Positions 5,516-64,000 of a stretch of 64,000 nt of DNA are shown piece by piece; position 1 is the first letter of the stretch, and every line of letters starts with the position of its first letter. Under the pieces are notes generated by a model, which was given only the letters and a program-made list of their open reading frames with translations, was not told where the DNA came from and did not search any database. The stretch covers positions 35,045 to 99,044 of the forward strand of contig CAYMLL010000001.1 in NCBI GenBank assembly GCA_964390645.1. The letters are read 5' to 3'. The DNA comes from an uncultured Planctomycetia bacterium. Its GTDB lineage: Bacteria; Planctomycetota; UBA8108. Both the position numbers and the translations under genes were made by a program.

Positions 5516-5602
5516 GCCAGAGTGGCGGAATTGGCAGACGCGCTAGATTCAAAATCTGGTTGGGTTATCCCAGTGTGGGTTCGAGTCCCACCTCTGGCAC
5601 CA
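5516..5602 (+). tRNA. tRNA-Leu (anticodon CAA), with long variable arm and encoded CCA
   Basis: I folded it by hand. The acceptor stem GCCAGAG/CTCTGGC is perfectly paired, with discriminator A and CCA at 5600-5602. The D-arm reads GCGGAATTGGCAGACGC. The anticodon stem is CTAGA/TCTGG with loop TTCAAAA, giving anticodon CAA. It has a long variable arm and a T-arm GTGGGTTCGAGTCCCAC. Confidence 0.85.
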
Positions 5603-33686: not shown

Positions 33687-34391
33687 ATGCTCGCCGTCGT
33701 ATCGATGGCCGCGGTCGCCACGCCGTCGTGTTCACGAAGCTCGGGCGAGGCGAAGGAGGCGTCCACGGCGTCGACCCACCCGCCGGGCCCCGACCGCAAA
33801 CCGGACGGCCTGCCGTTCTACGTCTCTTCCGACCTCACGCCGGTGTGGTTCGACGGGGAGCCTCGCGAACGCGAGATTCACCGCATCGGCGAGTTCCGCT
33901 TCCTGGATCAGACCGGCGCCGCGGTCACTCATGAGACGCTCAGCGGAAAGATCTGGGTCGCCGATTTCTTCTTCACGACCTGCGGCGGCATCTGCCCGAA
34001 GCTGACCTCGCACCTCCGCGAGGTGCAGGACGCCTTTCTCGACGACGACGGCATGGCGCTGATCTCGCACACGGTCACCCCGAAGATCGACACGGTCGAG
34101 CAGCTCGCCACCTACGGCGAGGCGCGTGGTGTGCGTGCCGGGAAGTGGCGACTGGTCACCGGTGATCGCGAGGCGATCTACCGCCTCGCACGCGGGAGCT
34201 ACTTCGCGGAAGGCGACCTTGCCATTCCACCGACATCGGAGCGCTTCCTGCACACCGAGAAGGTCTTTCTCCTCGACAGGGAGCGCCGGATCCGTGGCGT
34301 CTACGACGGGACCCGCAACATCGACATCCGTCTGTTGATGGAGGACATCCGTGAGCTGAAGAAGGAGTACGCCGACGATGAAGCCCTCTGA
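33687..34391 (+). CDS. SCO1/SenC-family thioredoxin-fold copper chaperone lipoprotein
   Basis: It has the FFFTTCGGICP CxxxC motif and a distal His (LISHTV). The overall SCO fold length fits, and it has a signal/lipobox. Its stop overlaps the sulfatase start. Confidence 0.7.
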   Translation: MLAVVSMAAVATPSCSRSSGEAKEASTASTHPPGPDRKPDGLPFYVSSDLTPVWFDGEPREREIHRIGEFRFLDQTGAAVTHETLSGKIWVADFFFTTCGGICPKLTSHLREVQDAFLDDDGMALISHTVTPKIDTVEQLATYGEARGVRAGKWRLVTGDREAIYRLARGSYFAEGDLAIPPTSERFLHTEKVFLLDRERRIRGVYDGTRNIDIRLLMEDIRELKKEYADDEAL

Positions 34392-43489: not shown

Positions 43490-43695
43490 CGTACCTGTGT
43501 TGCCGCTGACGATTGCGCACTCGACTCCGAAAACCCTGCCCGAACGAGGCACTGACCCTGAAAGAGCTCCCGGATTACTGTTGACGATGCATCAACAATA
43601 ACCCCGGCTGGAGCGGCGCTGCAGAGTTTTGTCAGAAGGGGCTCGGGAAAATAGTTTCCCGACGCGCGGCACGAGACCGTACCATCCTCGCCGCC

Positions 43696-47965: not shown

Positions 47966-48673
47966 TCAGAGTCGGAGCTTGTAACCGACCCCGAAGACCG
48001 TGGCGATGAGCCGCCCACCCGCGCCCAGCTTCCTGCGAACAGCGTCGACGTGGGTGTCGATGTTGCGCTCCTTGACACGCCCCACGAGCCCGATGCGCTG
48101 GAGAAGATCGGCGCGATCAAGCACCGCACCGCGAGCTTTCGCGAGCGCCACGAGGACCTGGAACTCTCGTACGGTCAGGGCCAGGTCGACTCCTCGATAG
48201 GTGACCTGGTAGCGATCGGTGTCGATTACGAGGCCCTTGTACTCGAACCGGAAACCCGTGGGGAAACGGGGGCTCGTACCGGCCTGCGAGATCAGGAGCT
48301 CGAGGCGCTCGACGACACGCTCGAGCGCCACCGGCTTCTTGAAGCACTGGTCGACCCCTGCGGCGCGACAGTCCGCAAGTGTGCATCCACTTTTTCCCGG
48401 GCTCAGCACGACGATCGGGACGTCGCGAGTCGACGTGTCGTCCCGAAGCTGTCGCGAGATGGTCAGCGCGCTCGACACCCTGGTCTCGGGATGCCCGGAT
48501 CCCACCAGGTCCTGAACAAGGACAACGTCCGGAGACTCCGACCGAACGCAGCTGACAAGATCGCCGTCCTGGAAGCCATCGACGACATCGAAGCCCGCCT
48601 GATCCAGGTGCCGTTCCAGAGCCCTCACATGCGAGTCTCCGGGATCGACCAGAAGCACCTTGCCAACCGGCAT
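47966..48673 (-). CDS. PhoB/OmpR-like response regulator with atypical receiver
   Basis: The C-terminal winged helix reads LTVREFQVLVALAKARGAVLDRADLLQRIGL...IDTHVDAVRRKLG. The receiver is divergent: VLLVDPGDS...DVVLVQDL. It lies downstream of the PhoU-PiT genes on the same strand. Confidence 0.7.
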   Translation of the reverse strand: MPVGKVLLVDPGDSHVRALERHLDQAGFDVVDGFQDGDLVSCVRSESPDVVLVQDLVGSGHPETRVSSALTISRQLRDDTSTRDVPIVVLSPGKSGCTLADCRAAGVDQCFKKPVALERVVERLELLISQAGTSPRFPTGFRFEYKGLVIDTDRYQVTYRGVDLALTVREFQVLVALAKARGAVLDRADLLQRIGLVGRVKERNIDTHVDAVRRKLGAGGRLIATVFGVGYKLRL

Positions 48674-48899: not shown

Positions 48900-49714
48900 C
48901 TAGTCCTCGACCTCGATCGCCTCGGAGTGGCGAATGTCCTCTCCCTTCACCAGGTAGACGACCTCCTCCCCCATGTTCGTCGCGTGATCCACGATACGCT
49001 CGATCGCTCGTGCTGTAAGAACGAGCGCCACCGAACGTGTGATGTTCTTCGCGTCCGTGATCATGCAGGTCAGCGCCTCGCGGAAGATCTGGTCGTTCAG
49101 CGCGTCCACCTCGTCGTCCGAGCGTATCACCGCCAACCCATCCTCCGCCGAGCCGTCCTCGAAAGCTCGCAGGCTCGACGCCATCATCTTCGTGGCCGTG
49201 TTCGCCATTCGCCGCAGGTCGATCAACCGTTTCAGCTCCGGCTCCGACAGCAGCAGACGCGCGTACTGGCGCATGTTCCACGCCTGATCACCGATACGCT
49301 CCAGCTCGGTATTGATGCTCGTGGCGATGACCACGAAGCGAAGATCCGACGCCCCCGGAAGGGACGTCGCTGTCAGGCGCACCACGACGTCGTCGATCTC
49401 CGCCTGACGGCGATCGACCCGATCCTCCAGATCACGGCACGGGTGGTCCGCCCAGTCACGAGCCCGTGCAGGTGGGAGCAGAGTCGATGTGCGAAGGGGC
49501 TACCCCGGGACACGGACGCGGGAAGAAGACCGTTGCCAGGTTCCGGATCGGCGCTGCAGTCACGCCAGGAGCGCCCCCGGATCCCCCGGCACGGCCCACC
49601 GGCCTGGAGCTCGTTTTTCCGCTGTAACCTCGAGATTCTCTCGTGAAAGAGAATCAAGCCGCCCCGAGATGCGATGAAGGCACCATGAAAACGCGCCCGA
49701 CAACGAACATCCAT
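48900..49714 (-). CDS. phoU: PhoU phosphate-signalling regulator, apparently frameshifted near 49500-49560
   Basis: The frame from 49385 down to the stop at 48900 matches PhoU helices 3-6: ELERIGDQAWNM, RSDDEVDALNDQIFREALTCMITD, ERIVDHATNMGEEVVYLVKGEDIRH. The same frame upstream (to the stop at 49500) still reads PhoU-like DLEDRVDRRQAEIDD. The extreme N-terminus (FHERISRLQRKNELQAGG, like HFEEELNRLKEKLLEMGG) lies in a different frame (ORF 49373..49714). The frame switch sits at a CCCCCGGATCCCCCGG run. Confidence 0.6.
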
Positions 49715-49779: not shown

Positions 49780-51339
49780 TCAGCTGAAGATCGCCTTGAA
49801 GATGTAGAAGAAGATGATCGCCAGGAGGGCCCCCGCAGGAAGGGTCACGACCCAGGATACGGCGATGTCCCGGACGACACGGAGGTTGAGCGCTCCAATG
49901 CCGCGCGCGAAGCCAACGCCGAGAACGGCGCCGACGAGCGTATGCGTCGTCGAGATCGGCATCCCCGCCCGTGACGCGACGAGGATCGTCACCGCGGCAC
50001 CGAATTCCGCGGAAAAACCACGAGTAGGCGTCAGCTCGGTGATCTTCTTGCCGATGGTCTCGATGACACGCCAGCCCCACATCGCCAGCCCGGCGACGAT
50101 TCCGACGCCTCCGATCGAGAACAGCAGCAGCGTCCAGCCGGTGCTGAGTCCGGAAGCCTTCTCGAGAACGTTGCGGTCGAGCACGCTCACGACACCACTG
50201 AGCGGGCCGATGGAGTTCGCAACGTCGTTGGCGCCGTGAGCGAACGCCACCGTGCAGGCGCTGAGAATCTGGAGGTAAACGAAGATCTTCTCCGTCGCAC
50301 GAATCTGTGGCGTGCCCCACTGCCGTGCCGACTTGTTTGCCTCTGTCGCCTCTTCGAGTTCGCGGGAGAGAGCCTCCACATCGGAGTCCCAGGTGTCGAT
50401 CCGCTTCTCGACATCGCCGTACGCCACCTCCCTGACTCGCTTCAAACGACTGCGAATCTTCGTCAGCTCCTCTTGAATCAACGGGTTCTGGAGCTCTCGA
50501 TCGTTCTCCCCCGACGCCGGCACCGCTTGCACCCGGTTGACGAGCGGAATGGAGATCAGTGCAGCAACGATACCGATCGGAATCGAGATGAACAGAGCGG
50601 TCGAGAACTCGATCTTGTCCAGGCCGAGCGGCTTCAACCCCTTGTACACGGTCACCAGAGCGATGATCGTGAAGACGATCGCGACCATCACCGGCGCCAG
50701 CCGTTTCGCCGCGGAAACCATGTCCTTCTTGAACAGGATCGTCCGCTGGATGATCAGGAACACGGCACACGAAAGAATGCCCGACATCACCGGCGAGACG
50801 AACCAGCTCGCGATGATGTCACGGACCTTGCCCCACGCGATCATGTCCAGGTTCCCCCAGAAGATCACGACTCCGAACCCCAGCACCGACCCGACAATGC
50901 TGTGCGTCGTCGACACGGGCAGACCGAAGTAGGTGGCGATCATCAACCACGTCGCGGCTGCCAACAGCGCCCCCATCATGCCGTAGACGTATAGCTGGAG
51001 ACCGTCGGGAATCTGCATCAGCTGATCGAGCGGAAGGATACCCTTACGAATCGTCTCGCTGACGTGCCGTCCGACGAGAAACGCTCCGGCAAATTCGAGC
51101 ACGCCCGCGACGACGATCGCTTGCTTGAGCGTCAGAGCCTTCGAGCCAACGGACGTCCCCATGGCATTGGCAACATCGTTCGCACCGATGCTCCACGCCA
51201 TGTAGAAGCCACTGACCAGAGCGATCCCCATGATGATCGACGAGGTCATGCTCGAGAAGAGCTGCCCGCCCTGCTCGGCCGCCGCCTGAGCGATCAGTGT
51301 CGATAGCGTTTCCAGCATCGCGGTAGAAACCGTGTTCAA
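49780..51339 (-). CDS. pit: Inorganic phosphate transporter, PiT family
   Basis: It has a duplicated GANDVANAMGTSVGS / GANDVANSIGP signature and 10-12 TM helices, with a central cytoplasmic loop bearing a coiled-coil. Confidence 0.85.
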   Translation of the reverse strand: MNTVSTAMLETLSTLIAQAAAEQGGQLFSSMTSSIIMGIALVSGFYMAWSIGANDVANAMGTSVGSKALTLKQAIVVAGVLEFAGAFLVGRHVSETIRKGILPLDQLMQIPDGLQLYVYGMMGALLAAATWLMIATYFGLPVSTTHSIVGSVLGFGVVIFWGNLDMIAWGKVRDIIASWFVSPVMSGILSCAVFLIIQRTILFKKDMVSAAKRLAPVMVAIVFTIIALVTVYKGLKPLGLDKIEFSTALFISIPIGIVAALISIPLVNRVQAVPASGENDRELQNPLIQEELTKIRSRLKRVREVAYGDVEKRIDTWDSDVEALSRELEEATEANKSARQWGTPQIRATEKIFVYLQILSACTVAFAHGANDVANSIGPLSGVVSVLDRNVLEKASGLSTGWTLLLFSIGGVGIVAGLAMWGWRVIETIGKKITELTPTRGFSAEFGAAVTILVASRAGMPISTTHTLVGAVLGVGFARGIGALNLRVVRDIAVSWVVTLPAGALLAIIFFYIFKAIFS

Positions 51340-51351
51340 AATCGGTGAAAG

Positions 51352-52024
51352 CTACTTGGCGATAAGGAGGCGCAGCCGATTGGCCATGCGCTCGGCTCCA
51401 TTTGCCAGATCCCCCAGCTTCGCAGTGACACGCATCCAGAGCAGGACCTCGACCGCGCCGATCTCATTCTCGAGTCCGACGACGATCTTCATCGCGGCGA
51501 GCTCGGAGGAGTCCGCGACCGTCTCGTCCTGGTTCAGGTTCTCGATCATCGCGAGCACCTTCTCGGCCTCCTCGCCGCCGAAGGACGACTCGACGAGCTC
51601 GTCGAACTCCTGAACGATGTCGGCCGCCTCGTGACAAACCCGACACGCGTCGGAGACGAGCTGGTTCAGCGGCTCCTTCAGATCCTCATGACACGACAGC
51701 CTCCGCAAGCTCAGCAGCGACCCGAGGTCCTGGCAGGTGTCGGCGATGGAGTCGATAACCTCCACGATCTCGAGAAGATCGCGACGGTCGATCGGAAGGA
51801 AGATGCTCTTCGGCAGATGTCCCCGGATGTCGTTCTTGACCCCGTCAGCTTCTGATTCGAGATCGTAGATCTCGCGGTTGAGCCGATCGAACTCCGGCAT
51901 GTTGCCGTCAGCAACCGCACCGATCAGGGCCGGAATACGCTCGACGCAAGCACGCGCCTTCTCCATGTGCTCCTGGACCGGTTTGAAAGGACTACGACCG
52001 AACAACGCCGCGAGGGCTTTCATC
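51352..52024 (-). CDS. DUF47 / TIGR00153-family PhoU-like protein (PiT-associated regulator)
   Basis: ORF 51352..52107, with the start at MKALAALFG (52024). The DUF47 layout (HMEKARACVERIP...EIYDLESEADGVKNDIRGHL...) is immediately upstream of pit, as in ykaA-pit pairs. Confidence 0.75.
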
Positions 52025-52406: not shown

Positions 52407-55400
52407 TCAGAGCCCGTCGACACACTCGAGCGGCCCGTCGCCGTCCGGGTCCTCGCCAGGGTCGGGGTAGGGAGCTGCGGGCGGCGGGCCCTGCTGAAAC
52501 AGGTGCGCGAGGATGCGCACGGCGTCGGTGAGATCGACGGTCTCGTCGTTGTCGGCGTCCCCGGCGTCTCGACAGTTCGACTCGAGCCCCGAGAAGAGAT
52601 GGCGCAGGATGGCGACCGGATCGCTGATGTCGACCACGCCATCGAGGTTGAAGTCGCCGCGGATGAACCGCGGAGGCAGTCCCAGCGCGGTGAACTCGAG
52701 ACGGTTGGAGTCGCCGCTGCCGAAATTGCGCGCGGTGATCGTCGCCGGGCCGGCGTCGACGAGCGGCACCTCGGCGACCAGCACGCCGGGATCGGCGCCG
52801 GGGTCATGGGTGACGAGCGGCGACAGCACACCCCCGAAGAAGACCTCGATGCCCGCGTGGAGCTCGCTGCCGCGAATGGTCACGCTGTCTCCCGGACGTG
52901 CCTCGACAGGCTCCACCGTCGTGAGCACCGGCGGCGGCAAGCCGAAGGTCGTCGTCACCGTGATCGAATCCGTCGCCGTGACCTCCCCGCTCGTCGCCAC
53001 CCCGAGTAGCCGAACGTCGTTCTCCCCGGAGACGAGCGGCACGGTGATGCGCCATCGCGACAGACTAGACCACGTGATCTGCGAACGCTCCTCGAGCCCG
53101 TCGACGAGAATCGACTGCACGTCGATGCCTGCGTCGCCCTCGAGGTCTACCGTCGGAGTATCGAGCGCCAGATCCGCACCACCGTTTGTCGTGATGCGAA
53201 AGGCCACCGGGGCCGGCAGCCGACCCCGCACAAAGCGACCGCGCTGGCCGATGTAGTTGAGGATCCCCCCGAAGTTCCTGCCAGTCTTGGTACCGTAGTG
53301 CTCGGTCCAGTGACGCATGTAGTCCGTGTTGTAGACCCGGTCGATGATGTCATCGAGGTGGCCGTAGAACCTTCGAAGGTTGCCGGGCAGCTCGATGATC
53401 CGACGCAGATTCTGGTCACCGTAGAGGGATGCGCCCGTGCCCCGCGTGAACGAGAAGTCGGCGTCCCACATCATGACCAGCACCTTGCCGTCTGACGGAC
53501 GCACGTAGTGCATGTTGTTGTGGTTGTTGCCAAAGGTGTAGCTGTCGTTGATGCCGGTCAGCGAGTAGACGGCGAAGACGCGCATCCACTCGTCGACATC
53601 CATGGTCGCCTCGGTGGCGGCATCCAGCTGCGAACGCGGAGCGCTGAACGCCTTCGACATGCCGATGAACTGCCGGTAGTCATCACGGGAGCGATTGTTG
53701 CGGATCAGGAAGTTCCAGCGGTAGACCTCCTTGTCGTCACCCCAGTCGCGAATGTCCGCGCCGATGACCCCGTCCGGCAGCGGGATCTTGTAGCCGTTCC
53801 CGTCGGCGGTCGTCGGGTGATAGATGAGCTCGAGCTTGAAGAGAGTACCGTCCCGCCCGTTCTCGAACGCGGACTCGAGAAAGACGTCGTTGTACCGTGC
53901 CATGAGAAGGAGCGCATAGCTGGTGTGCTGCCGACGCGGCGCGATGACACGAACGAGATCGTCGTACATCGCCGGGATACCGCCCGCGTAGTTCGCCGTA
54001 TGCTTGACGAGGATCTCGTCCTGCGACTGGATCGGCACGAGCCCGGACCACCCACCGGAGCGGTCCATAGCGATGCTGCGATGCACACCTCGAAACAGGT
54101 GGTCGGCGGGAAAACGGATGTTGAAGCTGACACGGTTGGTGTCGGGCCGACCGCGCTCGCTGCCGCGCAGACGCACGCCAGCGTCGTAGAACACCTCCTC
54201 TTCATTGTAGACGACCGTTGTCCCCACCGGATCGTTCGACATCAGCTCGATCGAGGCGTAGAGGCGTGATATGTCGGCCGGGGTCATGATGATCCGGACG
54301 TTGTGGACGGAGCCGAGCCGAGCCTGCCCGTCGTTCGTCCGGTAGAGTGCCCTCGAGTCACGGCCGCCGTCGGGATAGGTCGACGATGCACCGAGCCCGT
54401 CCTCCGCCTCGACATAAAACTGCACCGTACGCGATGACGACTGGCCGGGTATCGTGCCCCGGTAGCGGCCTGCGGCGAGGCTCATCGAAGCGCTGCGCCA
54501 GGCCCCTCCCTCGACGGAGTACCGGAGCTGCACGCTATCGACGCCGTCGGGATCATCGACGCCAACGCTGACAACGACCGGCTCTCCAGAGGCCGGAACC
54601 ACAGGAGCATGCATCATGCCGTCGTAGGTCGGGCCGATGTTGGCCTGGCGCCGGGAGTTCTCCGCACCCGGCGTTCCCGCGCGCTCGGAGACCGTCACCA
54701 GCGTCGTTCGTGGACAGCGGTTGAAATAGAGCCGCGTGTGCACCTGGTTCGAGCCGACGACCCACCTGGCACGAAACGAGATCTCGTACGTACGACCGTT
54801 GGTGACGCCGATGTTGTTCGCGAGCGTCCGCTCGACGTGATTGTGCATGTGCTCGGTCGCGCCGGTTGCAACGAGACGCAGCACCCGATTGCCCGGGTCA
54901 TCGGGATCCGTGATGACCTCACTGTGGCGATGCGTGCCCAGAAAACGCCATCCGGAGCTACCGCTCGCAAAGCTGCCGTTCTGGATGAGCTGGCGCTCGG
55001 CGCCGCCGGGATTCTCGATGACGCTGATGTCGTCGACCAGCACCTCGCCGCCGTCCAGAAGTCCGAGGCAGAAGTCTCGCCACCGTGTCGGGCCTATGTT
55101 GGCCCTCGCGGGCTGCGTGTAGACGTACGTCGTCCACTGCGTCTTGTCGCTCTCGTCGCTGGCGGCCCAGACCTCGGGACGCGAGTTGTCGGCGTCGGGG
55201 TCGCGCAGCTCGATGCTCGCGCCGCCTCCATCAGCGGCGCCCGGCCACGGCTGGCGGTCGTGGTAGCGCACGACGTCGGCCACGTTGCCGTTCCGATCCT
55301 CGAGGACGAGTCGGTCGCTGCGCCCGGACAGGTTGCCCTCGAAGTCCCCGACGATCGGGATGTCGGGGTGGAGCCCCTCGAGGAAGACCCGGTCACCGGC

Positions 55401-57860
55401 GACGACGAGGTAGCCACCTGCCGGAATGGTCTGGCCGTCCTCGAACTCGTAGCGAATACCACGAGTCATCCTCCACCCGCTGAGATCAACCGTCGAGGTG
55501 CCCCGATTGTGGAGCTCCACCCAGGCCTCGGGGGACTCCGTCGGATCGCCGCCCGCGACGTCGACGATCTCACGGGCACTGACCTCGAGTCCGAAGACGA
55601 CGTCGCTCGAGCCGGCTGTTCTCTGGTGCACCTCGACCGCGATCACGTTGCGCCCGCTTCGCAAGCTCGCCGCCGACACCGCGAAGGGACCGGCGAAGGT
55701 CGCGTCACCGATAGCCGCAGCGGCCAGTGTCGCGGGCGTCACCGGGCCGTCAGGCATCCCCTGCCGCAGTACTTCGACACCATTGAGATAGAAGACCGCG
55801 CCGTCATCGATGACGCTCCGGAAGAAGATCTCGGTGGCTGCGGGGTCACCGTCAAAGTCGAACTCCCCGCGAAAGTAGTAGGTGATCGCGCCGAGTGGCA
55901 ACTCCGTACCCCTGGGAGCGGGCAAGCCGCCGGACTCGTGGTAGAGCAGCGCGTCGCCGACCTCCCAGCCCGCATCATCGAACGTCGACTGTCGCCAGCC
56001 ACTCCCCTGACCGTCGCCACTCGCGTCGAAGCGCCACTCGCTGGCGATCGGCACGATCACGTCGCCGATCACGGTCCCGGCGCTCGGCGCCGGCTCGTTG
56101 CGCGGGTTGTAAAAGATCTCGTTGATGACGATCTCGTCGTGAAAAGAGAACGTGTTGGCGCTACCGAAGGTCGGTCCGTCCGGCACGGCAAGCTCGTTGC
56201 CGCCGTCCGGCGAGCGACCCCGTCGTCCGTCCTTCAAGCGTAGCGCATCGACGACCGCCCCCTTGCCACGGGTGTAGAGAAAGAGACGGGAGTCCACGAC
56301 GAGCGCAAAACCGAGTTCCGTCGCCGTCAGCACGTGAAACGCGCCCGTCTCGAGCGTCACCGCCCCGAAGACGTGCTCGCCGACCGTCGTGCCGTGCGCC
56401 TCCAGCACCCAGCCCTCGAGGGAGACCCGCGGACCGGTGTTGTAGAGCTCGATGCGACCCTCTCCCGCCGTGGGAATCTCGGTCTCGTTGATCACGACGC
56501 CGATGTCGCTCGTATCGACCTGTCCGCCGCCACCCGAGAAATAATCTCCTCCGCCCTGCGTCAGGGAGCGATGGTCGGCAATTTCGGCGGCGTTGAGAGC
56601 TCGCTCCCAGATCGCTACCTCGTCGAGCACCCCGGTGAACGGTTCTCGCCGGCCGCTCATGTTGCCGATGTAGGCCGTCGCGATGCCTCCCGAAGTGATC
56701 GTATCACCCGGTGTCAGCACCGTCGTGAAGGCCTCGGCGCCATCGACCCAGATCGTCTTCTCGCCGGTCGATGCTCGATAGGTCGCAGCGACGTGATGCG
56801 TGCTCCCGTCCTTCAGCCCGGCAAGCGTCGGTCGACCCGCCACGCCGTCGAGGGGCATGTCGAGCTCACTGTAGGTGCCACCGATGTTCAGACCGAACGA
56901 CAGCGTGGGCTGTACAGCAGGCGAGATCGCGACGTCACGGGTCCCCGTGTTTCCATCGTGCTGGAACGAGAAGAAGATCCTGCGGCTGCCGTCCTCCTTG
57001 CGGAAAATCTGGTCGTGGTCGTCGACCGCGCCGCTCCACTCGGGACGGATCAGCGCCTCGATCGTGATGCCGCCCGACATCGAGAAGCTGTCCCCCTCGC
57101 CGTTGCCGACGTTGACGAGAGCGTTCGAACTGTTGTCCAGATCGATCGCGCCGTCGCCGACGAGCCCGTCGACCCTGCGGACACCCGAGCCCAGGTTGCC
57201 GTGGTTGCCGCCGACAGCATCGACGGCCTGGCCGCTCGACTCGTCGAAACTCCAGTAGGACACGAGTCCCTGCGCATTCGTCGGCGGCGGCTCGTCCCCG
57301 TCTGCAAAGTTGACCCGTCCGGGCGTGCCGCCGATCTCCGCGCTCGACGTCCAGCTGGCAGTGCGCGAGCTGCGCGTGTCCGGATCGATCTTGGCCAGCG
57401 ACACCCCGGAACCGTCAGCGGACACCGGCCATTCGCCGCCGACACCGTAGCTGACGCGGTCCATCCAGCGGCCGTTGTGGTCGCGAAGCTCGAGACGCTC
57501 ACCGGCGTTGCTCAACCGTCCGACGAAGGGGCCGAAGGCGCCCGGGTAGCCGGTCTCGGCCTCGAGCGCGGCGGGGTCGAGCGCGACGACGATGTAGTCG
57601 CCACCTTCGACGATCGTCCCCGCGGGAAACTGGTAGAAGACGCCGTCAGACAGGTACCAGCTCGAGATGTCAACGTCCACCGCCATCTGGTTGTGGAGCT
57701 CGATCCACTCCAGCTGCACCTCGCTGGTGGCAGGGTGGTACTGGATCTCGTTGAAGACGACGATGCTGTCCGCTCGCCCGGCGCCTGTCCAGGTGAACAA
57801 GAACCCGAAGAGCGCCGCACCCATCAACGCGGTGTGAGATTGCCTCTGGCCTGCACTCAT
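52407..57860 (-). CDS. Giant secreted multi-LTD / LamG-like / CotH kinase-like / IPT protein with C-terminal dockerin-like pair (1,818 aa)
   Basis: ORF 52407..58319, with the start at MSAGQRQSHTALMGAALFGFLFTWTGAGRA (57860). LTD1 is VVFNEIQYHP...EWIELHNQMAVDVDISSWYLSDG. A LamG-like stretch is LVSYWSFDESSGQAVDAVGGNHGNL...ITIEALIRPEW. Further LTDs include AWVELHNRGTSTVDLSGWRMT. The CotH core is VFYDAGVRLRGSERGRPDTNRVSFNIRF...YALLLMARYND...LFKLELIYHP...WNFLIRNN...VLVMMWDADFSF. There are IPT-like repeats (VTIRGSELHAGIEVFFGG). The dockerin pair is GDFNLDGVVDISDPVAILRHLFSG and DADNDETVDLTDAVRILAHLFQQG. Confidence 0.8.
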   Translation of the reverse strand: MSAGQRQSHTALMGAALFGFLFTWTGAGRADSIVVFNEIQYHPATSEVQLEWIELHNQMAVDVDISSWYLSDGVFYQFPAGTIVEGGDYIVVALDPAALEAETGYPGAFGPFVGRLSNAGERLELRDHNGRWMDRVSYGVGGEWPVSADGSGVSLAKIDPDTRSSRTASWTSSAEIGGTPGRVNFADGDEPPPTNAQGLVSYWSFDESSGQAVDAVGGNHGNLGSGVRRVDGLVGDGAIDLDNSSNALVNVGNGEGDSFSMSGGITIEALIRPEWSGAVDDHDQIFRKEDGSRRIFFSFQHDGNTGTRDVAISPAVQPTLSFGLNIGGTYSELDMPLDGVAGRPTLAGLKDGSTHHVAATYRASTGEKTIWVDGAEAFTTVLTPGDTITSGGIATAYIGNMSGRREPFTGVLDEVAIWERALNAAEIADHRSLTQGGGDYFSGGGGQVDTSDIGVVINETEIPTAGEGRIELYNTGPRVSLEGWVLEAHGTTVGEHVFGAVTLETGAFHVLTATELGFALVVDSRLFLYTRGKGAVVDALRLKDGRRGRSPDGGNELAVPDGPTFGSANTFSFHDEIVINEIFYNPRNEPAPSAGTVIGDVIVPIASEWRFDASGDGQGSGWRQSTFDDAGWEVGDALLYHESGGLPAPRGTELPLGAITYYFRGEFDFDGDPAATEIFFRSVIDDGAVFYLNGVEVLRQGMPDGPVTPATLAAAAIGDATFAGPFAVSAASLRSGRNVIAVEVHQRTAGSSDVVFGLEVSAREIVDVAGGDPTESPEAWVELHNRGTSTVDLSGWRMTRGIRYEFEDGQTIPAGGYLVVAGDRVFLEGLHPDIPIVGDFEGNLSGRSDRLVLEDRNGNVADVVRYHDRQPWPGAADGGGASIELRDPDADNSRPEVWAASDESDKTQWTTYVYTQPARANIGPTRWRDFCLGLLDGGEVLVDDISVIENPGGAERQLIQNGSFASGSSGWRFLGTHRHSEVITDPDDPGNRVLRLVATGATEHMHNHVERTLANNIGVTNGRTYEISFRARWVVGSNQVHTRLYFNRCPRTTLVTVSERAGTPGAENSRRQANIGPTYDGMMHAPVVPASGEPVVVSVGVDDPDGVDSVQLRYSVEGGAWRSASMSLAAGRYRGTIPGQSSSRTVQFYVEAEDGLGASSTYPDGGRDSRALYRTNDGQARLGSVHNVRIIMTPADISRLYASIELMSNDPVGTTVVYNEEEVFYDAGVRLRGSERGRPDTNRVSFNIRFPADHLFRGVHRSIAMDRSGGWSGLVPIQSQDEILVKHTANYAGGIPAMYDDLVRVIAPRRQHTSYALLLMARYNDVFLESAFENGRDGTLFKLELIYHPTTADGNGYKIPLPDGVIGADIRDWGDDKEVYRWNFLIRNNRSRDDYRQFIGMSKAFSAPRSQLDAATEATMDVDEWMRVFAVYSLTGINDSYTFGNNHNNMHYVRPSDGKVLVMMWDADFSFTRGTGASLYGDQNLRRIIELPGNLRRFYGHLDDIIDRVYNTDYMRHWTEHYGTKTGRNFGGILNYIGQRGRFVRGRLPAPVAFRITTNGGADLALDTPTVDLEGDAGIDVQSILVDGLEERSQITWSSLSRWRITVPLVSGENDVRLLGVATSGEVTATDSITVTTTFGLPPPVLTTVEPVEARPGDSVTIRGSELHAGIEVFFGGVLSPLVTHDPGADPGVLVAEVPLVDAGPATITARNFGSGDSNRLEFTALGLPPRFIRGDFNLDGVVDISDPVAILRHLFSGLESNCRDAGDADNDETVDLTDAVRILAHLFQQGPPPAAPYPDPGEDPDGDGPLECVDGL

Positions 57861-58132
57861 GTGCCTCTCGATCCCGGTCGACCCGAAAGCACCGAGACTA
57901 CGCTGCGGGAGAGGTTGCGGCAAGCTCCTCGTGAAACGACTGGCAGATCTTGCGCAGCTCCCCACGGACCCGCTACCATGAACGGCCTGGAGGGATCTTC
58001 CGGCTCGCCTTCCTGAACACCGCCGCCACAGCCACGGCGACGAGGACGGGAACGACGACCCCGGAACCGCGACGAGGACGGCAACGGGACCCGGAAACGG
58101 CGACCCCGGAACAGGGTACAGGGAGACAAGGA

Positions 58133-61100
58133 ATGCTGGGACATCGATGCGTACTCGGACTGCTCGTGTCGGCGCTCGTGGCAGTTGCGGCGACAGGCAC
58201 CCTGCAAGCGCAGATCTACTCGGACGACTTCGAGCGCGCCGACGGTCCCGTCGACGGCTGGACGAACGCCGGTGGCAACTGGGAGATTGCCGGCGGCGAG
58301 CTCGTCGGCGGGCCTCCATCCGGAGCCGAGCAGCAGATCTTCGCCGGCGACCCCGCTCTGGTCTTGCCCGACAGCTACCGCCTCTCGTTCGACATCCGCT
58401 GGATCGCGCCCGAGGGCGGCGGCGTCGGCCGCCACGGCGGCGTCATGTTCAACTTCCAGGGCGTCGGACCTCGCGGCTCGCAATCCGGCTACCTCGTCTG
58501 GTGGATCGACCGAGCAGCCGACAAGGGACTGAACCTGACACGACGCGACGGTGGCGGATTCAACCACCTCGTCGTCGGCCCCGGCGCCGCGAACGCTCCC
58601 GCGGACCCGCCCGAGCGCTGGACGATCGAGGTCGTCGGCCCGACGATCCGCGTCTACGGCGACGGCACTCTCTACATCGAGCACGTCGACAGCACGTACC
58701 GCGGCGGTCGCTTCGCGATGTTCACCTGGAACGGGGAAGGCCAGCACGTCGCGATCGACAACGTCCTGGTCGAGGGAATCGTGCTCGCCGACAATTTCAG
58801 CCGCTCGCCCGTCCCGAACTGGACGCCCGTCGGCGGCAACTGGAGCATCGACGGGGAATCCGAGACCTTGCGGGTCGGCCCGACGGGCGGCGAGATCCAG
58901 ATCTACGCCGGCAGCCCGCCGGTATCGCTGCCGGAGGAGTTCTCGCTGTCGGTCGACATGGCGTACCTGGCGCCGGGTACCCACCCGGTCGTCGGACGGC
59001 ACGCGTCAGTGAACTTCAACTACCAGGAGGCGACAGCCAGGAACGGCTCCGACGGCTACCAGGTCTTCTGGATCGACCGCGGCAGTGACTTCGGCCTCAA
59101 CCTCGTCCGCTGGGACGGCGGCGCTCTGGTGCCGCTGGATGCGAACGGCACCGGCGACCTCTTCGCCGACCCTCCGGCCAACCTGCGCATCGAGGTGGAC
59201 GGCGACACGATCCGTGTGTACGGCGACGACGTTCTGGCGATCGAGGCCGTCGACACCACGTACCGCGGCGGGCTCTTCGCCATCTGGTCGTGGACCGGCG
59301 GCCAGGAGCTCCAGGTCGACAATGTCATCGCGACCGCCGGCGACGAGACACTCTTCGAGGACACCTTCACGCCCGGTCCGATCTCGCTCGGCGACTGGAC
59401 CGTCATCGAGGGCCTCTGGGAGATCGTCGACGTCGACGGTGACAACGCTCTGCGCGCCGGACCCGCGGGCGCTACCGAGCAGAGCATCTTCGCGAACGCG
59501 ACGCTGCCAGCCGACTTCGTCGCCAGCGTCGACATCGACTGGATCGCCCCGCAGGGCGGTGGCGTCGGTCGACACGGCGGGGTCTACGTCTGCTGGCAAG
59601 AGCCGAGCGGTCGCACCGCCGGGAACGGCAACGGCTACCACATCTGGTGGATCGACCGCGCGGCCGACCGGGGCTGGAACCTGTTCAAGCAGGTGAACGG
59701 CACGTTCAACACGCTCGTATCGGGCACCGCGCCCGCGGGAGCAAGCCCCGACGGTGCCCTCTCGATCGAGGTCGCCGGTGACAGCATCCGTGTCCACCAC
59801 AACGGCGAGCTCGTCATCGACCACGACGACAGCCAGTTTCGCCGTGGCCATATCGGCCTCTGGACCTGGGCCGGCAAGGGGCAGAACGTCGACTTCGACG
59901 ACGTCGTCGTCTTCGGCGATCCGGTCCAGTGCATCCCCTGCTTCGCGGTGACGACGGACGCGCCGCGCTTCCCCGGCGAGCCGGTGAGCTTCGACGCCGG
60001 CTGTGGCTTCGGCAACATCACCTCGTACAGCTGGGACTTTGGCGATGGACAGTCCGACTCGGGCGAGCAGACGGAGCATACCTACGACGAGAGCGGTACC
60101 TACACGGTAACGCTGGCGGTCGAAGGCCCGGACGGCTGCCAGGAGTCGGTCTCGCAGGACATCGAGATCGCCTGCGTCGAGAGCTACGAGTGCGACGGCA
60201 GCGTCGCGAGCGACGACTTCGAGGATGGTGATCTCGACGGCTGGACGGTGGCGGGCGGCACCTGGAACGTCGACGACGGCGTCGCCGTCGCCGGGCCGGC
60301 AGCCGCTGGAGGCGCCGGTGCCGAGCAGCATCTCTTTCTAGACCAGGCGGTGCCCAACGACGAGGTGACGATCCAGTTCGACTGGGAGTTCCTCTCCTCC
60401 GGCAACGTGGCCGGCGTCGGACGCCACGCGGGAATCTACTTCTGCTGGACCGGCACCGGCGTGCGCTGGGACGGTGGCACGAGAGGCTACCAGCTGTGGT
60501 GGATCGACCGTGCGCAGGACCGGGGCCTCGTCCTGGCGGACTGGAATCCGGGGCTCTCGCGTATCCTCCATCCGGGCACCTTCGACCTCTTCCCCGAGCC
60601 CCCGCAGACCATCCGCATCCAGATCGACGGACCGCGCCTCCGCGTCTTCGGAGCCGACGTCTGCGCGATCGACATCGAGGACACGACCCACCGGGGTAGC
60701 CAGGTCGCTCTCTGGACCTGGGAGCAGGGCCAGCACGTGCGCTTCGACAACTTCTGCATCGACGGACCACGCCTGGCGCCGTGCTTCGAGGTCGCCAAGA
60801 GCGGCCCTACGGTAGTCGGCGGCTCGATCACCTTCGATGGCGACTGTACGTCCGTGGCCGACGACGTCGAGGACATCCCCCTCCTGAGCTGGGACTTCGG
60901 AGACGGCAACGGAGACGACGGCAACATCGTCCGGCACACGTACGCGGAGCCGGGCACGTACACCGTGACCATGACAGCGGAGATCCCCGGCGAGGTACGG
61001 AGCTTCTCGCGGGACATCGCCGTGTCGCCTCTGGCAACGGAGTTCGAGGACGGCTTCGACGCGTTCGGCGTGGAGCTCGGACCATGGACGGTCGCGGCGG

Positions 61101-62794
61101 GTGCTTGGTCCCGGGTCGACGGACGGCTGACGACCGGCCCGACCGGCGCAGAGCACTGGATCTGGGCCGGCGCGCCCCCGGAGGTGGCGCCGGGGAACTC
61201 GGTCTTCGAGTTCGACTACGAGTTCCTGGCTCCCGGGACCGTCCCGTCGGTCGGCCGCCACGGCGGATTCGCGTTCTGCTGCGACGATCCATCGTCGCGC
61301 GGCGTCTTCCGCGGCTACTACTTCGACTGGATCGATCGTGACTCCGACCGCGGCATACGACTCACTCGCTCCGACGGCGCTCCCGACTCGATTCTCGTCA
61401 ACGGACAGGGTGTCGAGAACGCACCCGCCGACCCGCCGACCCACTACCGCGTCGAGATCAACGGCCCACGCATCCGCATCTGGGGTGACGACGAGCTCTA
61501 CATCGACATCGTAGACAACACGTACCGTGGGGGCTTCTTCGGCTTCTGGACCTGGGCCGGCGGTCAGGAGGTCGCCGTCGACAACTTCGAGCAGGTCGAG
61601 AGCTCGCTCCTGAGCCCGTGCTTCGAGAGCCGCCCGGGCGCCCTCCTCGCCGCCGGCCAGGTCGGTACCTTCGACGCGTCCTGCGCCGGGATCTTCTGCG
61701 ACGTCGACAACATCGAGTTCTACACGTGGGACTTCGGCGACGGCAGTGATTCACGGAGCGGTGTCGAGGTGACGCACGCCTACGAGACGCCGGGAACCTT
61801 CCCGGTGACGCTCACGATCGAGGATTCCGACGGCAACGATCGCTCGGTATCGAAGGACGTCACCGTCTTCGAAGAGAAGGCCCCCTTCGCCGACTGCTTC
61901 GAGCGAGCAGCCGGAGCGCTCGATGGCTGGACGGTCCCGCTCGGCGCCTGGTCGATCCTCGGCAACGAGACGGCTGCCACGGCGACGACCACCGGCAACC
62001 CCGACGCCGAGAGCTGGGCCTGGTGCGGCGATCCCGCCGGCGCCACCGGGGAGCCGAACCTCGCGATACAGTTCGACGTCACGAGCGTCCTGTTCACCGG
62101 CAGCCCGCTGGACAGCGTACGACGACATTTCGGGGTCATGTTCTACTCGAACGTGGTGACGACGAACCGAACCGCGCCGGACTCGAGCGGCTACGGCCTC
62201 TGGTGGATCGACCGCACGAACGACCGCGGCGTCTCGCTGACGCGCCTCGACGGCACACAGCGCACCATGCTGGCATCCGGGGCGGGCAGCGATCTCGACG
62301 GCCCTCCCGGCGTCTGGCGCGTCGAGATCGACGGAACGGTGATCCGCGTCTTCGGCGACGACGTGCTCCTGATCGAGGTCGAGGACGAGACCTACCGCAC
62401 GGGGCACCTCGGGTTCTGGGCATGGAAGAACATGTCCCTCGGCATCGACAACGTCCGGGTCGGCCGTCTCGGCGAGCTGCCACAATGCGCTCCGGTCGGC
62501 GGAGCCCAGAGGGCATGCGACTTCAACCAGGACGGCCGCTTCGACCTCTCGGACGCGGTCAGCCTCCTCGCTTACCTCTTCACCGGAGGAGCCAGTCCTC
62601 CCTGCGGAGATGGCACGATCGCGGACCCCGCGAACCAAGCGCTCCTCGACGCCAACGGCGACGGGAACCTCGACATCTCCGACGCCGCGTACAAGCTCAA
62701 CTACCTCTTCACCGGGGGACCGGCTCCGATTCCGGGCGGCCAGTCGAGCTGCCTGCTGATCCCGGGCTGTCCGGACACCGGCTGCGTCGAATGA
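58133..62794 (+). CDS. Giant secreted protein with 6 DUF1080-like (concanavalin/LamG jelly-roll) repeats, 3 PKD domains and C-terminal dockerin-like pair (1,554 aa)
   Basis: ORF 57950..62794, with the start at MLGHRCVLGLLVSALVAVAATGTLQAQ (58133) after an AGGGAGACAAGGA RBS. Six ~200-aa repeats share DGWT..GGxW.I.GG.L.GP...EQ.IF.GDP...D...SFDI.W.AP.GGGVGRHGG...F.....GY..WWIDR..D.GLNL.R.DGG.F..L.....ADPP....IE..G..IRV.GD.....IE..D.TYRGG.F..WTW.G.....DN. PKD-like modules (C...F.A.C......Y.WDFGDG...G....H.Y...GTY.VTLT.E) follow repeats 3, 4 and 5. The C-terminus reads CDFNQDGRFDLSDAVSLLAYLFTGG...DANGDGNLDISDAAYKLNYLFTGG. Confidence 0.75.
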   Translation: MLGHRCVLGLLVSALVAVAATGTLQAQIYSDDFERADGPVDGWTNAGGNWEIAGGELVGGPPSGAEQQIFAGDPALVLPDSYRLSFDIRWIAPEGGGVGRHGGVMFNFQGVGPRGSQSGYLVWWIDRAADKGLNLTRRDGGGFNHLVVGPGAANAPADPPERWTIEVVGPTIRVYGDGTLYIEHVDSTYRGGRFAMFTWNGEGQHVAIDNVLVEGIVLADNFSRSPVPNWTPVGGNWSIDGESETLRVGPTGGEIQIYAGSPPVSLPEEFSLSVDMAYLAPGTHPVVGRHASVNFNYQEATARNGSDGYQVFWIDRGSDFGLNLVRWDGGALVPLDANGTGDLFADPPANLRIEVDGDTIRVYGDDVLAIEAVDTTYRGGLFAIWSWTGGQELQVDNVIATAGDETLFEDTFTPGPISLGDWTVIEGLWEIVDVDGDNALRAGPAGATEQSIFANATLPADFVASVDIDWIAPQGGGVGRHGGVYVCWQEPSGRTAGNGNGYHIWWIDRAADRGWNLFKQVNGTFNTLVSGTAPAGASPDGALSIEVAGDSIRVHHNGELVIDHDDSQFRRGHIGLWTWAGKGQNVDFDDVVVFGDPVQCIPCFAVTTDAPRFPGEPVSFDAGCGFGNITSYSWDFGDGQSDSGEQTEHTYDESGTYTVTLAVEGPDGCQESVSQDIEIACVESYECDGSVASDDFEDGDLDGWTVAGGTWNVDDGVAVAGPAAAGGAGAEQHLFLDQAVPNDEVTIQFDWEFLSSGNVAGVGRHAGIYFCWTGTGVRWDGGTRGYQLWWIDRAQDRGLVLADWNPGLSRILHPGTFDLFPEPPQTIRIQIDGPRLRVFGADVCAIDIEDTTHRGSQVALWTWEQGQHVRFDNFCIDGPRLAPCFEVAKSGPTVVGGSITFDGDCTSVADDVEDIPLLSWDFGDGNGDDGNIVRHTYAEPGTYTVTMTAEIPGEVRSFSRDIAVSPLATEFEDGFDAFGVELGPWTVAAGAWSRVDGRLTTGPTGAEHWIWAGAPPEVAPGNSVFEFDYEFLAPGTVPSVGRHGGFAFCCDDPSSRGVFRGYYFDWIDRDSDRGIRLTRSDGAPDSILVNGQGVENAPADPPTHYRVEINGPRIRIWGDDELYIDIVDNTYRGGFFGFWTWAGGQEVAVDNFEQVESSLLSPCFESRPGALLAAGQVGTFDASCAGIFCDVDNIEFYTWDFGDGSDSRSGVEVTHAYETPGTFPVTLTIEDSDGNDRSVSKDVTVFEEKAPFADCFERAAGALDGWTVPLGAWSILGNETAATATTTGNPDAESWAWCGDPAGATGEPNLAIQFDVTSVLFTGSPLDSVRRHFGVMFYSNVVTTNRTAPDSSGYGLWWIDRTNDRGVSLTRLDGTQRTMLASGAGSDLDGPPGVWRVEIDGTVIRVFGDDVLLIEVEDETYRTGHLGFWAWKNMSLGIDNVRVGRLGELPQCAPVGGAQRACDFNQDGRFDLSDAVSLLAYLFTGGASPPCGDGTIADPANQALLDANGDGNLDISDAAYKLNYLFTGGPAPIPGGQSSCLLIPGCPDTGCVE

Positions 62795-62927
62795 AGCGGC
62801 AGCTGTAGCCATGTCCACGGTCGGTCGCGAGTCCGCAAGATTCGTGGCCGACCGTGGATCTCTGTCGCTCGGTCGAAGTCACCCGGTCCGCGTTGACCGC
62901 GGGCACTGAAACCAGGAGAACGGTGGG

Positions 62928-64000
62928 ATGTCGGTTCGGTCCATGGCCCTTGCTCTGACGTCTCTCGCGGTCGCCTCGCTACCGGCGCAGGACTTCGACG
63001 ACGACTTCGAGCGCGGCAACGGTCCGCTCGACGGGTGGACCGTCCATGACGGCGACTGGAACATCGTCGACGGAGTCCTCGTCGCCGGTCCAGCCGGCGC
63101 CACGGAGCAGCACGCGTACGTCGGCGACCCCGCCCTTCGATTCCCGGCGGGCGACTACGTCTTCTCGGTCGACCTGCAGTTTCTCATCGAAGACCAGCAG
63201 CCGGTCGGGCGCCACGCAGGAATCGCGTTCTGCATGGACCAGCCCGCAGCGCGGTCGTCCTCCAGCGGCTACCTCGCATGGTGGATCGACCGCACCGCCG
63301 ACCGGGGGATCAACCTCACCCGTCGAGATGGCGGCGGCTTCAATCACCTCGTTCTGGGTGGCGGAGATCCGCTCTCCTCGCCACCGACCAACCTGACGAT
63401 CGAGATCACCGGCGACACGATCCGCGTCCATGCCGACGACGTCCTCGTCATCGAGCACGTCGACAACACCTACCGCGGCGGTCACTTCGGCCTCTGGTCC
63501 TGGAACGGCGCGAGCCAGCACGTCGCATTCGACAACGTCACGCTGGAAGCTGAAGTCCCGGCGCTCACGGCCTGCTTCACCTTCGACCCAGCCACTCCCC
63601 TGCCCGGAAACGATGTGATCTTCGACGCGTCCTGTAGCATCGCGAGCCTCGGCGAGATCGTGGGCCATGAGTGGTCCTTCGGGGACGGCGACTCTGCGGA
63701 AGGTGAGGTGGTCGAGCACGTCTACGACTTTGCCGACAACTACGTCGTCACGTTGACGGTGGAGGATGACCTGGGAAACGTCGCCACAGTCGACAGAAAC
63801 ATCGGAGTCCCGGACACGCTGCTGCCCCTCGAGGACGACTTCAACCGCGCCGAGGGACTCGCCGACGGCTGGACGATCCACGAAGGCGACTGGCGCATCA
63901 ACGCCGACGGCCAGCTGCAGGTGACGACGCAAGGAGCCGAGGCCACGATCTGGGCGGGCGACCCTGCTGGCGTGCTCGCGGGCGACTTCACCATCGAATT
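62928..64000 (+). CDS. Paralogous secreted DUF1080-like/PKD repeat protein, 5' part (runs off window end)
   Basis: The frame is open from the ATG at 62928 (MSVRSMALALTSLAVASLPAQ signal) to the window end. It has the same repeat (GYLAWWIDRTADRGINLTRRDGGGFNHLV ... IRVHADDVLVIEHVDNTYRGGHFGLWSWNG), a PKD module (HEWSFGDGDSAEG...YVVTLTVEDDLGN), and the start of a second repeat. Confidence 0.7.
   Translation, partial: MSVRSMALALTSLAVASLPAQDFDDDFERGNGPLDGWTVHDGDWNIVDGVLVAGPAGATEQHAYVGDPALRFPAGDYVFSVDLQFLIEDQQPVGRHAGIAFCMDQPAARSSSSGYLAWWIDRTADRGINLTRRDGGGFNHLVLGGGDPLSSPPTNLTIEITGDTIRVHADDVLVIEHVDNTYRGGHFGLWSWNGASQHVAFDNVTLEAEVPALTACFTFDPATPLPGNDVIFDASCSIASLGEIVGHEWSFGDGDSAEGEVVEHVYDFADNYVVTLTVEDDLGNVATVDRNIGVPDTLLPLEDDFNRAEGLADGWTIHEGDWRINADGQLQVTTQGAEATIWAGDPAGVLAGDFTIE

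Follow-up and report, generated by a model that had tools for sequence, protein, structure and literature searches.

A secreted CBM66/DUF1080-like repeat protein with tandem paralogs, and its conserved pairing with a CotH-domain giant in uncultured Planctomycetota

What is the role of a large secreted protein assembled from six copies of one beta-sandwich domain, and how is it related to the still larger CotH-domain protein encoded beside it? Both genes lie in a 64,000-nucleotide stretch of DNA from an uncultured Planctomycetia bacterium (contig CAYMLL010000001.1, positions 35,045 to 99,044), here referred to as the window. The repeat protein is encoded by gene A (window positions 58133 to 62794, plus strand), and its divergently transcribed neighbor, referred to as the giant, by positions 52407 to 57860 (minus strand). 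The reading that we favor, and to which we would give roughly an even chance, is that gene A and its tandem paralogs encode secreted, multivalent CBM66-like glycan-binding proteins that are spaced by PKD modules, docked through dockerin-like modules, and act with the CotH giant at the cell surface. The gene set itself is real, is conserved across uncultured Planctomycetota, and is built from known domain types.

Gene A encodes a secreted protein of 1,553 amino acids (aa), identical to the protein on record P0001 (100% identity as BLASTP reports), with six CBM66/DUF1080-like repeats, three PKD modules, and a dockerin-like C terminus. Its start at 58133 is preceded by GGGAGACAAGGA, and its N terminus is a Sec-type signal peptide, MLGHRCVLGLLVSALVAVAATGTLQA/QI. 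A hidden Markov model (HMM) built from the six units found all six as full-length repeats of ~187 aa, in agreement with the six jelly-roll repeats of the original prediction. Repeat 1 (58208 to 58768, aa 26 to 212) was delimited by its HMM envelope, and repeat 2 (58775 to 59329, aa 215 to 399) was identified by the HMM and by 13 of 13 residues of the signature described below. Both the HMM and the signature also mark repeat 3 (59345 to 59908, aa 405 to 592), repeat 4 (60197 to 60757, aa 689 to 875), repeat 5 (61034 to 61591, aa 968 to 1153), and repeat 6 (61877 to 62458, aa 1249 to 1442). The PKD modules follow repeats 3, 4, and 5, exactly where they had been predicted, at 59921 to 60175 (~aa 597 to 681; PF18911/PF00801, best stretch aa 605 to 679), 60767 to 61024 (~aa 879 to 964), and 61601 to 61867 (~aa 1157 to 1245), the last two also as Pfam PKD stretches. 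For the whole protein, PKD_4 (PF18911) matched with an E value of 1.5e-46 and PKD (PF00801) with an E value of 2.6e-36, in three stretches each; the PKD score of the gene downstream was 9.9e-15. The dockerin type I-like module (62510 to 62791) comprises two DxNxDGxxDxxD calcium-loop/helix segments followed by a Cys-containing tail. All of these parts are read on the plus strand. The architecture and coordinates given earlier were thus right, and only the lengths of 1,818 aa for the giant and 1,554 aa for gene A need adjustment, since both counted the stop codon; the true lengths are 1,817 and 1,553 aa.

Taken as a whole, the gene A protein belongs to PF06439 (3keto-disac_hyd, or DUF1080), scoring 78.9 bits against a cutoff of 26.8 (E value of 6.5e-22, four stretches). 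For single repeats the match is borderline: repeat 1 alone scores 26.5 bits against the cutoff of 26.8, and in an alignment of 50 repeats from the window and its homologues (alignment A1), 34 of the 50 matched PF06439 at an E value of ≤1 and 10 of the 50 matched DUF6250. When this alignment was used as a profile against the PDB, it retrieved the CBM66 module of the Bacillus subtilis levanase (4AZZ, 4B1L, and 4B1M; E value of 3e-10) and no other solved structure family better than an E value of 0.69. With the same alignment as input, AlphaFold2 modeled repeat 1 (aa 23 to 215) as an all-beta sandwich with a mean predicted local distance difference test score of 93.6 and a predicted template modeling (TM) score of 0.90. 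A Foldseek search of this model against the PDB placed CBM66 (4b1m) at the top, with a target-normalized TM score of 0.80 and an E value of 1.9e-9, followed by the DUF1080-type protein BT3469 and then by many GH16 and lectin sandwiches. As judged from these profile and model comparisons, the repeats are CBM66/DUF1080-type beta-sandwiches, homologous to CBM66 and of concanavalin-like fold, as the original prediction had proposed, and their closest solved relative by both profile and fold is a binding module, CBM66.

DUF1080 and CBM66 are names for one domain, and DUF1080 is highly overrepresented in Planctomycetes (PMC5673643). The repeats have in common with CBM66 a concanavalin-like beta-sandwich of ~160 to 190 aa and a framework of GR..G, GY, D...D, and D....G.fGl elements. 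The known CBM66 is a single, noncatalytic module on a GH32 enzyme in Firmicutes that binds the terminal fructose of levan (PMC6560043), whereas the repeats at this locus occur in three to six copies without an enzyme domain and are ~20% identical to CBM66. They also share a Pfam family with BT2157, Caulobacter crescentus CCNA_01705, and Thermogutta terrifontis THTE_1561, a family whose members are secreted or periplasmic. Its characterized members, in contrast to gene A, are single-domain enzymes of ~24 kDa that act with sugar dehydrogenases or on beta-glucans (PMC9007349, PMC10881899). BT2157 is a 3-ketotrehalose hydrolase, and also a proposed 3'-ketolactose hydrolase (PMC9007349), and THTE_1561 is a weak, promiscuous endo-glucanase/xanthanase (PMC10881899).

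A search of 1.84 billion entries with the repeat profile returned 124 cluster representatives at an E value of ≤1e-30, 605 at 1e-10, and 3,267 at 1e-3, and by this comparison the repeats form a subfamily of their own within PF06439. Multirepeat proteins like that of gene A account for a few dozen clusters, and single-domain forms are also found. Family members carry two to six repeats; most of those read have no recognizable enzyme domain, and some have other N-terminal regions. The homologues of gene A come from Planctomycetota metagenome-assembled genomes (MAGs), whose records call them simply "PKD repeat protein" or "PKD domain-containing protein." Two variants illustrate the range. P0084 (257 aa) is a single-domain member with a PEP-CTERM-like tail (PEPSSLMLLSLGGLVALRRRRR), and in P0061 (1,469 aa) a peptidase-like N-terminal region is followed by three repeats, with no PKD modules, and by a dockerin-like end.

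Across 159 repeats from 48 proteins, 13 positions, mostly polar or aromatic, are near invariant: E66, R100, H101, R114, Y120, W124, D126, R127, D130, D186, R190, W197, and D209 in gene A numbering. At least 12 of these 13 residues are kept in 146 of the 159 repeats, and each of the 13 repeats of this locus keeps 12 or 13 of them. A few repeats have degenerated at these positions while still matching the domain model, among them repeat 6 of P0003 and repeats 1 and 2 of the distant proteins P0047 and P0049. Because the signature is kept unit by unit and yet is lost in a few repeats that retain the fold signal, it points to a functional site in each repeat rather than to a requirement for folding. 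The same pattern bears on the idea that the repeats are structural blocks of a surface-layer or adhesin-like fiber, held together by protein-protein contacts and having no specific ligand site. Long arrays of beta-sandwich and PKD domains are typical of bacterial surface fibers, gene A combines a signal peptide with a C-terminal module of anchoring type, and a PEP-CTERM-like variant exists. Such a fiber, however, would explain neither why 13 mostly charged or aromatic residues are near invariant in 159 repeats that are otherwise 35 to 50% identical nor why the signature is lost in the few repeats that keep the fold signal, and we regard it as rather improbable.

The B. subtilis CBM66 has 5 of the 13 signature residues in an HMMER alignment (R100, Y120, D126, D130, and D186); H101, W124, R127, R190, and W197 are among those absent from it. 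With so few residues in common, the repeats and CBM66 probably have different ligands. An acidic glycan would suit the many Arg and His residues of the signature, if composition is any guide.

Could the repeats instead be catalytic DUF1080 domains, either 3-keto-glycoside hydrolases or GH16-like endo-glucanases, so that gene A would encode a multicatalytic polysaccharide-degrading enzyme? PF06439 does include BT2157 and the T. terrifontis endo-xanthanase/lichenase (PMC9007349, PMC10881899, PMC5673643), almost every repeat keeps the invariant acidic, His, and Arg residues, and GH16 enzymes are among the Foldseek matches. Several observations count against catalysis: the closest solved relative is noncatalytic, the repeats have no GH16-type ExDxxE motif and carry W-I-D-R-x-x-D as their conserved stretch, and no sugar 3-dehydrogenase gene (GFO/LacABC type) adjoins the repeat genes in any locus read. 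Moreover, six tandem copies of a catalytic domain would be unusual, while tandem binding modules are common. We therefore consider a catalytic role unlikely, though worth keeping in view.

Gene A is followed by further genes of its type. The 5' part of a second gene with the same architecture (paralog 2) begins at 62928 on the plus strand and runs off the window end at 64000. A separately deposited 38.6-kb contig, L001, is nearly identical to the window (8 mismatches in 15,868 overlapping bases) and extends past its end. On L001, gene A (1,553 aa; six repeats and three PKD modules) is followed by gene 2 (1,189 aa; four repeats and three PKD modules) and gene 3 (867 aa; three repeats and two PKD modules), which starts 11 bp after gene 2. 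All three encode a signal peptide and end in a dockerin-like module, and per repeat the tandem genes are ~40 to 54% identical. Farther downstream of this cluster, L001 encodes a 1,821-aa FG-GAP/PPDK_N protein. L001 and a second contig with this locus, L002, both come from ENA ERZ23498677 and represent two related populations in one metagenome; compared with each other, the two show 51% identity in the gene A orthologues and 75% in the CotH domains.

Between gene A and paralog 2, 19 nucleotides 3' of the gene A stop codon, lies a stem-loop (62813 to 62859, plus strand) with a 21-bp stem and a 5-nucleotide loop. Its predicted RNA fold has an energy of -49.4 kcal/mol (z score of -5.9), and none of 200 shuffled sequences was as stable. 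The element is without a clear U-tract. It may be terminator-like or transcript stabilizing, in which case gene A may form its own transcription unit or have a stabilized 3' end.

How old are these repeats, and can the assembly be trusted to have resolved them? The original prediction put their identity at ~40 to 50% by eye and noted short identical DNA words among them, and both points were confirmed by measurement. The gene A repeats are 34 to 49% identical to one another in protein and 62 to 70% in DNA, and are up to 54% (protein) and 73% (DNA) identical to the first repeat of the downstream gene. A direct-repeat search recovered families of five to seven copies at 60 to 80% identity, far above chance, spaced ~570 nucleotides apart where repeats stand back to back and ~840 nucleotides apart where a PKD module lies between. 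The word TGGTGGATCGACCG occurs five times (at 58499, 59645, 60497, 62201, and 63279) and encodes the near-invariant WWIDR motif with biased codon usage; the longest exact word common to repeats is 17 bp. When compared with other genomes, each of the 13 locus repeats best matches the same-position repeat of an orthologue, at 57 to 82% identity. A repeat of the same protein (38 to 59%; 39 to 49% in gene A) or of a neighboring paralog (41 to 54%) was in no case the best match. Since positional orthologues are closer than sister repeats, the duplications predate the divergence of these lineages and the repeats have not evolved in concert; the comparison of the 13 repeats with their orthologues gave no sign of recent exchange between repeats. 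Over a longer timescale the repeat number does change. The closest gene A orthologue, P0002 (68% identity; L011, 161 to 3700), has four repeats instead of six, corresponding to repeats 1, 4, 5, and 6, and is followed directly on L011 by a gene-3-type paralog, so that both repeat and gene number vary between close relatives.

The further suggestion that the repeats complicate assembly or allow recombination did not hold. Efficient RecA-dependent exchange usually needs ~20 to 30 bp of perfect identity; a 17-bp word falls below this and far below the length that confuses assemblers. Repeat-driven recombination and assembly collapse were accordingly rejected on the basis of the 17-bp maximum word, DNA identities of 62 to 73%, two agreeing assemblies, and positional orthology across genomes. 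That the tandem paralogs or internal repeats are an assembly artifact, from collapsed or duplicated repeats, might be suspected of any repetitive coding region in high-GC, metagenome-derived sequence. However, repeats whose longest run of identical bases is 17 were recovered with equal structure on L001, a contig with different ends, and their order is kept in orthologues from other samples. With two assemblies and other samples in agreement, an assembly duplication is ruled out and an artifact is left with a negligible probability, and the second gene from 62928 is what it had been taken for.

The C terminus of gene A ends in the segments DFNQDGRFDLSD...LLAYLF and DANGDGNLDISD...LNYLF, two tandem calcium-loop-plus-helix segments of ~22 residues with Asp or Asn at loop positions 1, 3, 5, 9, and 12, as in type I dockerins. 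Aligned C termini from 23 members of the family show two DxNxDGxxxxxD loop-helix segments and a Cys-containing tail, and their profile matched Clostridium thermocellum CelS (1DAQ/2MTE) in the PDB with an E value of 8e-6 and other type I dockerins with E values to 1e-4. A pattern search placed dockerin-like modules in at least nine window genes, at 9985 to 10155, 39896 to 39967, and 52587 to 52655 on the minus strand and at 32051 to 32221, 34483 to 34554, 39296 to 39364, and 62519 to 62719 on the plus strand. The module is C-terminal in the open reading frame (ORF) at 9871 to 11001, the PPDK_N protein (36254 to 39451), the CotH protein at 39836 to 43552, the giant, and gene A; it stands right after the signal peptide in a YHYH protein (31880 to 32938), a sulfatase (34378 to 36024), and the CotH protein at 27799 to 30003. 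The tag thus looks like a general mark of the organism's secretome. Given that the giant and at least seven other secreted window proteins carry such a module, the repeat proteins and the giant most likely cooperate as one extracellular set.

A precedent is the "planctosome" hypothesis of Andrei et al. (2019, ISME J), a noncellulosomal cohesin/dockerin surface complex in freshwater and uncultured Planctomycetes, tethered in the model through a lamin-tail-domain protein (PMC6461901). LTD and dockerin-like modules likewise mark many secreted proteins here. That model, however, concerns peptidases and includes cohesins, whereas this locus encodes lectin-like arrays and CotH proteins, with no cohesin among the 23 proteins scanned.

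The giant is a secreted protein of 1,817 aa with the order LTD, Laminin_G_3, LTD, CBM_4_9, CotH-like domain, and C-terminal dockerin-like module. Its ORF is readable from 58319; the start at 57860 (MSAGQRQSHTALMGAALFG..., MSAGQRQ...) is that of the L001 gene call and corresponds to a Met invariant in seven orthologues. Pfam matches were LTD (E value of 1.2e-34, two stretches), Laminin_G_3 (9.8e-16), and CBM_4_9 (1.4e-6), together with a partial match to the CotH model PF08757 that covers profile positions 88 to 220 of 322 (31.3 bits against a cutoff of 23.8, E value of 2e-7). A profile of the seven orthologues matched Bacillus cereus CotH (5JD9) in the PDB with an E value of 1e-5 and type I dockerins at ~4e-4. 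HN and W-D-x-D are invariant in the seven orthologues and align to H228-N229 and W246-D247-Y248-D249 of 5JD9. We take the catalytic/metal residues D228 and D251 of B. subtilis CotH to be equivalent to D224 and D247 in 5JD9 numbering; the D224 position falls in an insertion in the giant alignment, the nearest invariant Asp being 5 residues upstream, so the catalytic Asp of the CotH domain is ambiguous by alignment. The giant resembles the dockerin-bearing cellulosomal CotH proteins CseP/Cthe_0044 and Cthe_0239 (LTD-LTD-Fn3-CotH) of C. thermocellum in its combination of LTD, CotH-like, and dockerin-like parts (PMC6083626). It differs from the clostridial proteins in its length of 1,817 aa and in its additional Laminin_G_3 and CBM_4_9 domains.

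An LTD-LamG-LTD-CotH protein of 1,552 to 1,823 aa adjoins gene A homologues on the annotated contigs, namely, the window and L001, L002/L003, and L004 to L009; the sole annotated locus without it is the distant, contig-end locus L010. On L004 (1 to 15729 of a 7.87-Mb planctomycete contig), one strand carries, in order, a giant, a repeat gene, a giant, and two repeat genes. We also scanned GTDB species genomes with a nine-sequence alignment and obtained 21 further loci, all but two of them titled as uncultured Planctomycetota or Planctomycetia MAGs. With the CotH domain of the giant as the tblastn query, a copy 45 to 72% identical was found within 10 kb in 9 of the 21 (L015, L017, L018, L020, L023, L025, and L028; the other two repeat L004 and L007), and the loci without a match are mostly on short or truncated contigs. 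Adjacency of the giant and repeat genes is thereby seen in ~15 loci from uncultured Planctomycetota. The divergent orientation occurs only in the window, L002/L003, L017, and L020, the loci whose CotH sequences are the most similar (71 to 75%); elsewhere the genes are codirectional with gaps of 61 to 566 bp. This conserved adjacency strongly suggests a functional link between the giant and the repeat genes, which form a conserved gene pair and in most genomes are probably an operon. Because orientation varies while adjacency is kept, the linkage is not a property of the region that separates the two genes here.

That region is, as originally described, a 272-bp divergent intergenic region (57861 to 58132). 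A scan of it for sigma-70 promoters and terminators gave no match, and against the orthologous regions of L002, L003, and L011 only the ribosome-binding site AGGGAGACAAG is conserved, the rest not being alignable. In a set of 22 upstream regions, no k-mer was enriched above shuffled controls; ACGAGG(G), which recurs by eye, was discarded as a regulatory motif for the same reason. Tandem Repeats Finder reported a 32-bp tandem repeat at 58037 to 58104 (plus strand; period 32, 2.2 copies, 83% matches, score 92), 29 to 96 bp upstream of the gene A start, with a unit of approximately GCGACGAGGACGGCAACGCGACCCCGAAACC; L002, L011, and L017 have no conserved counterpart. Two other divergent loci, L017 (9855 to 9895) and L020 (9848 to 9888), have in common a conserved sequence upstream, CCTATAATACACCCCTCAA..GGGTCAAACAG, which includes a TATAAT-like box; the window lacks this block. 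The suggestion that the giant and gene A are coregulated from this region therefore survives in part: a functional link is suggested by adjacency in ~15 loci, but divergent transcription is limited to the closest relatives and no sigma-70-like promoter or conserved motif was found.

By analogy with Bacillus, in which CotH phosphorylates repeat-rich spore-coat proteins, the repeat proteins could be substrates or assembly partners of a CotH-like kinase that builds a phosphorylated extracellular or envelope layer. The pairing conserved in ~15 loci, often on one strand with gaps of 60 to 200 bp, would fit such a relationship, as would the alignment of the CotH domain to B. cereus CotH with HN and WDxD invariant in the seven orthologues. 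A secreted protein with an ATP-using PPDK_N domain and a dockerin-like end is encoded in the window, and Pho genes adjoin the giant both here and in L002. Here these lie downstream of the giant on the minus strand, after a gap of ~380 bp, and comprise a PhoU_div gene (51352 to 52023), a PHO4 transporter gene (49780 to 51318), a PhoU gene (48900 to 49385), and a gene for an OmpR-type response regulator (48133 to 48673). On the other side, the CotH match is weak (Pfam E value of 2e-7 over profile positions 88 to 220; PDB E value of 1e-5), and the residue aligned to D224 of 5JD9, which we take to be catalytic, is not Asp. Furthermore, the supply of ATP outside the cytoplasm would be unexplained, the PhoU neighborhood is not conserved in more distant loci, and the repeats offer no Ser/Thr-rich target region. 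We judge a kinase-substrate relationship to be improbable. A broader proposal, that the repeat genes and the giant make up a hitherto undescribed, lineage-specific two-component module of uncultured Planctomycetota in which a secreted CotH-type kinase modifies or assembles the multivalent CBM66-like proteins into a dockerin-organized surface structure, is speculative, and we would be somewhat surprised if it proved correct.

Returning to multivalent glycan binding, we propose that gene A and its two downstream paralogs would act as secreted, noncatalytic binders in which each repeat contributes one ligand site, formed presumably by the conserved polar and aromatic residues, with the PKD modules serving as spacers. 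The C-terminal type I dockerin-like module would bind calcium and attach each protein to a partner at the cell surface, a location that the PEP-CTERM-like tail of the single-domain homologue fits. Together with the giant, the repeat proteins may form one extracellular, dockerin-organized set, cellulosome-like in the "planctosome" sense, that captures or adheres to polysaccharide. Several points weigh against this proposal. Fructan binding is not transferable from CBM66 on the strength of 5 of 13 common residues. DUF1080 includes the enzymes BT2157 and THTE_1561 (PMC9007349, PMC10881899), and the invariant Glu, Asp, His, and Arg of the repeats could equally be catalytic. The PF00404 Dockerin_1 cutoff of 22.9 bits is not reached by gene A (20.1 bits, E value of 7.3e-4, aa 1463 to 1520) or by the giant (21.4 bits, 2.9e-4), and a Pfam scan of 23 window proteins turned up no cohesin.

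The window has a GC content of 61 to 71% (2-kb windows) and carries the planctomycete hallmark families PSCyt1/PSCyt2/PSD1 and DUF1501, with a tRNA-Leu(CAA) gene (5516 to 5602, plus strand) as the sole RNA gene found by ARAGORN and Rfam. Besides the giant, it encodes two other CotH-domain proteins, both on the minus strand: one of 1,239 aa with LTD/CHB_HEX_C_1/Fn3_assoc/CotH/dockerin architecture (39836 to 43552; CotH E value of 5e-37) and one of 735 aa with LTD and CotH (27799 to 30003). The three CotH genes lie within 64 kb, and each is of another subtype; the 1,239-aa subtype is also found near the repeat-gene/giant pair in L005 and L007. Searches of the giant and the 1,239-aa protein against the PDB with phmmer gave no match, and BLASTP gave no alignment of their CotH domains to each other. 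The PPDK_N protein (36254 to 39451, plus strand; 1,066 aa) combines a signal peptide with a pyruvate phosphate dikinase ATP-binding domain (PPDK_N; E value of 2.6e-16) and a dockerin-like C terminus, and an ATP-using domain is odd in an apparently exported protein. A phosphate link as part of the module was considered and rejected, since a Pho neighborhood is present only here, with a PhoU-like gene in L002, and is absent from L004 to L009.

What is new at this locus is the subfamily signature, the enzyme-free multirepeat architecture, and the conserved pairing with the giant. Because the domain types are all known, we see the result as a useful annotation and a hypothesis rather than a surprise. 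Few protein families of Planctomycetes have expanded as much, or are as poorly understood, as DUF1080, and the phylum plays an important part in polysaccharide turnover. Within this family the locus defines a distinct CBM66-like subfamily with a 13-residue signature, in the form of enzyme-free arrays of two to six modules. Gene order links the subfamily to a CotH giant, and it is also tied to a dockerin-like tag that many secreted proteins carry. Should the signature be a glycan-binding site, the subfamily would be a source of new carbohydrate-binding modules with a specificity unlike that of CBM66. If the two-component module were true, it would amount to a working noncellulolytic "planctosome" whose tag marks a class of the secretome, including the sulfatase, YHYH, PPDK_N, and three CotH proteins within 64 kb. 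The pairing of giant and repeat genes offers an entry point to the role of secreted bacterial CotH proteins and to dockerin-based surface complexes in Planctomycetes.

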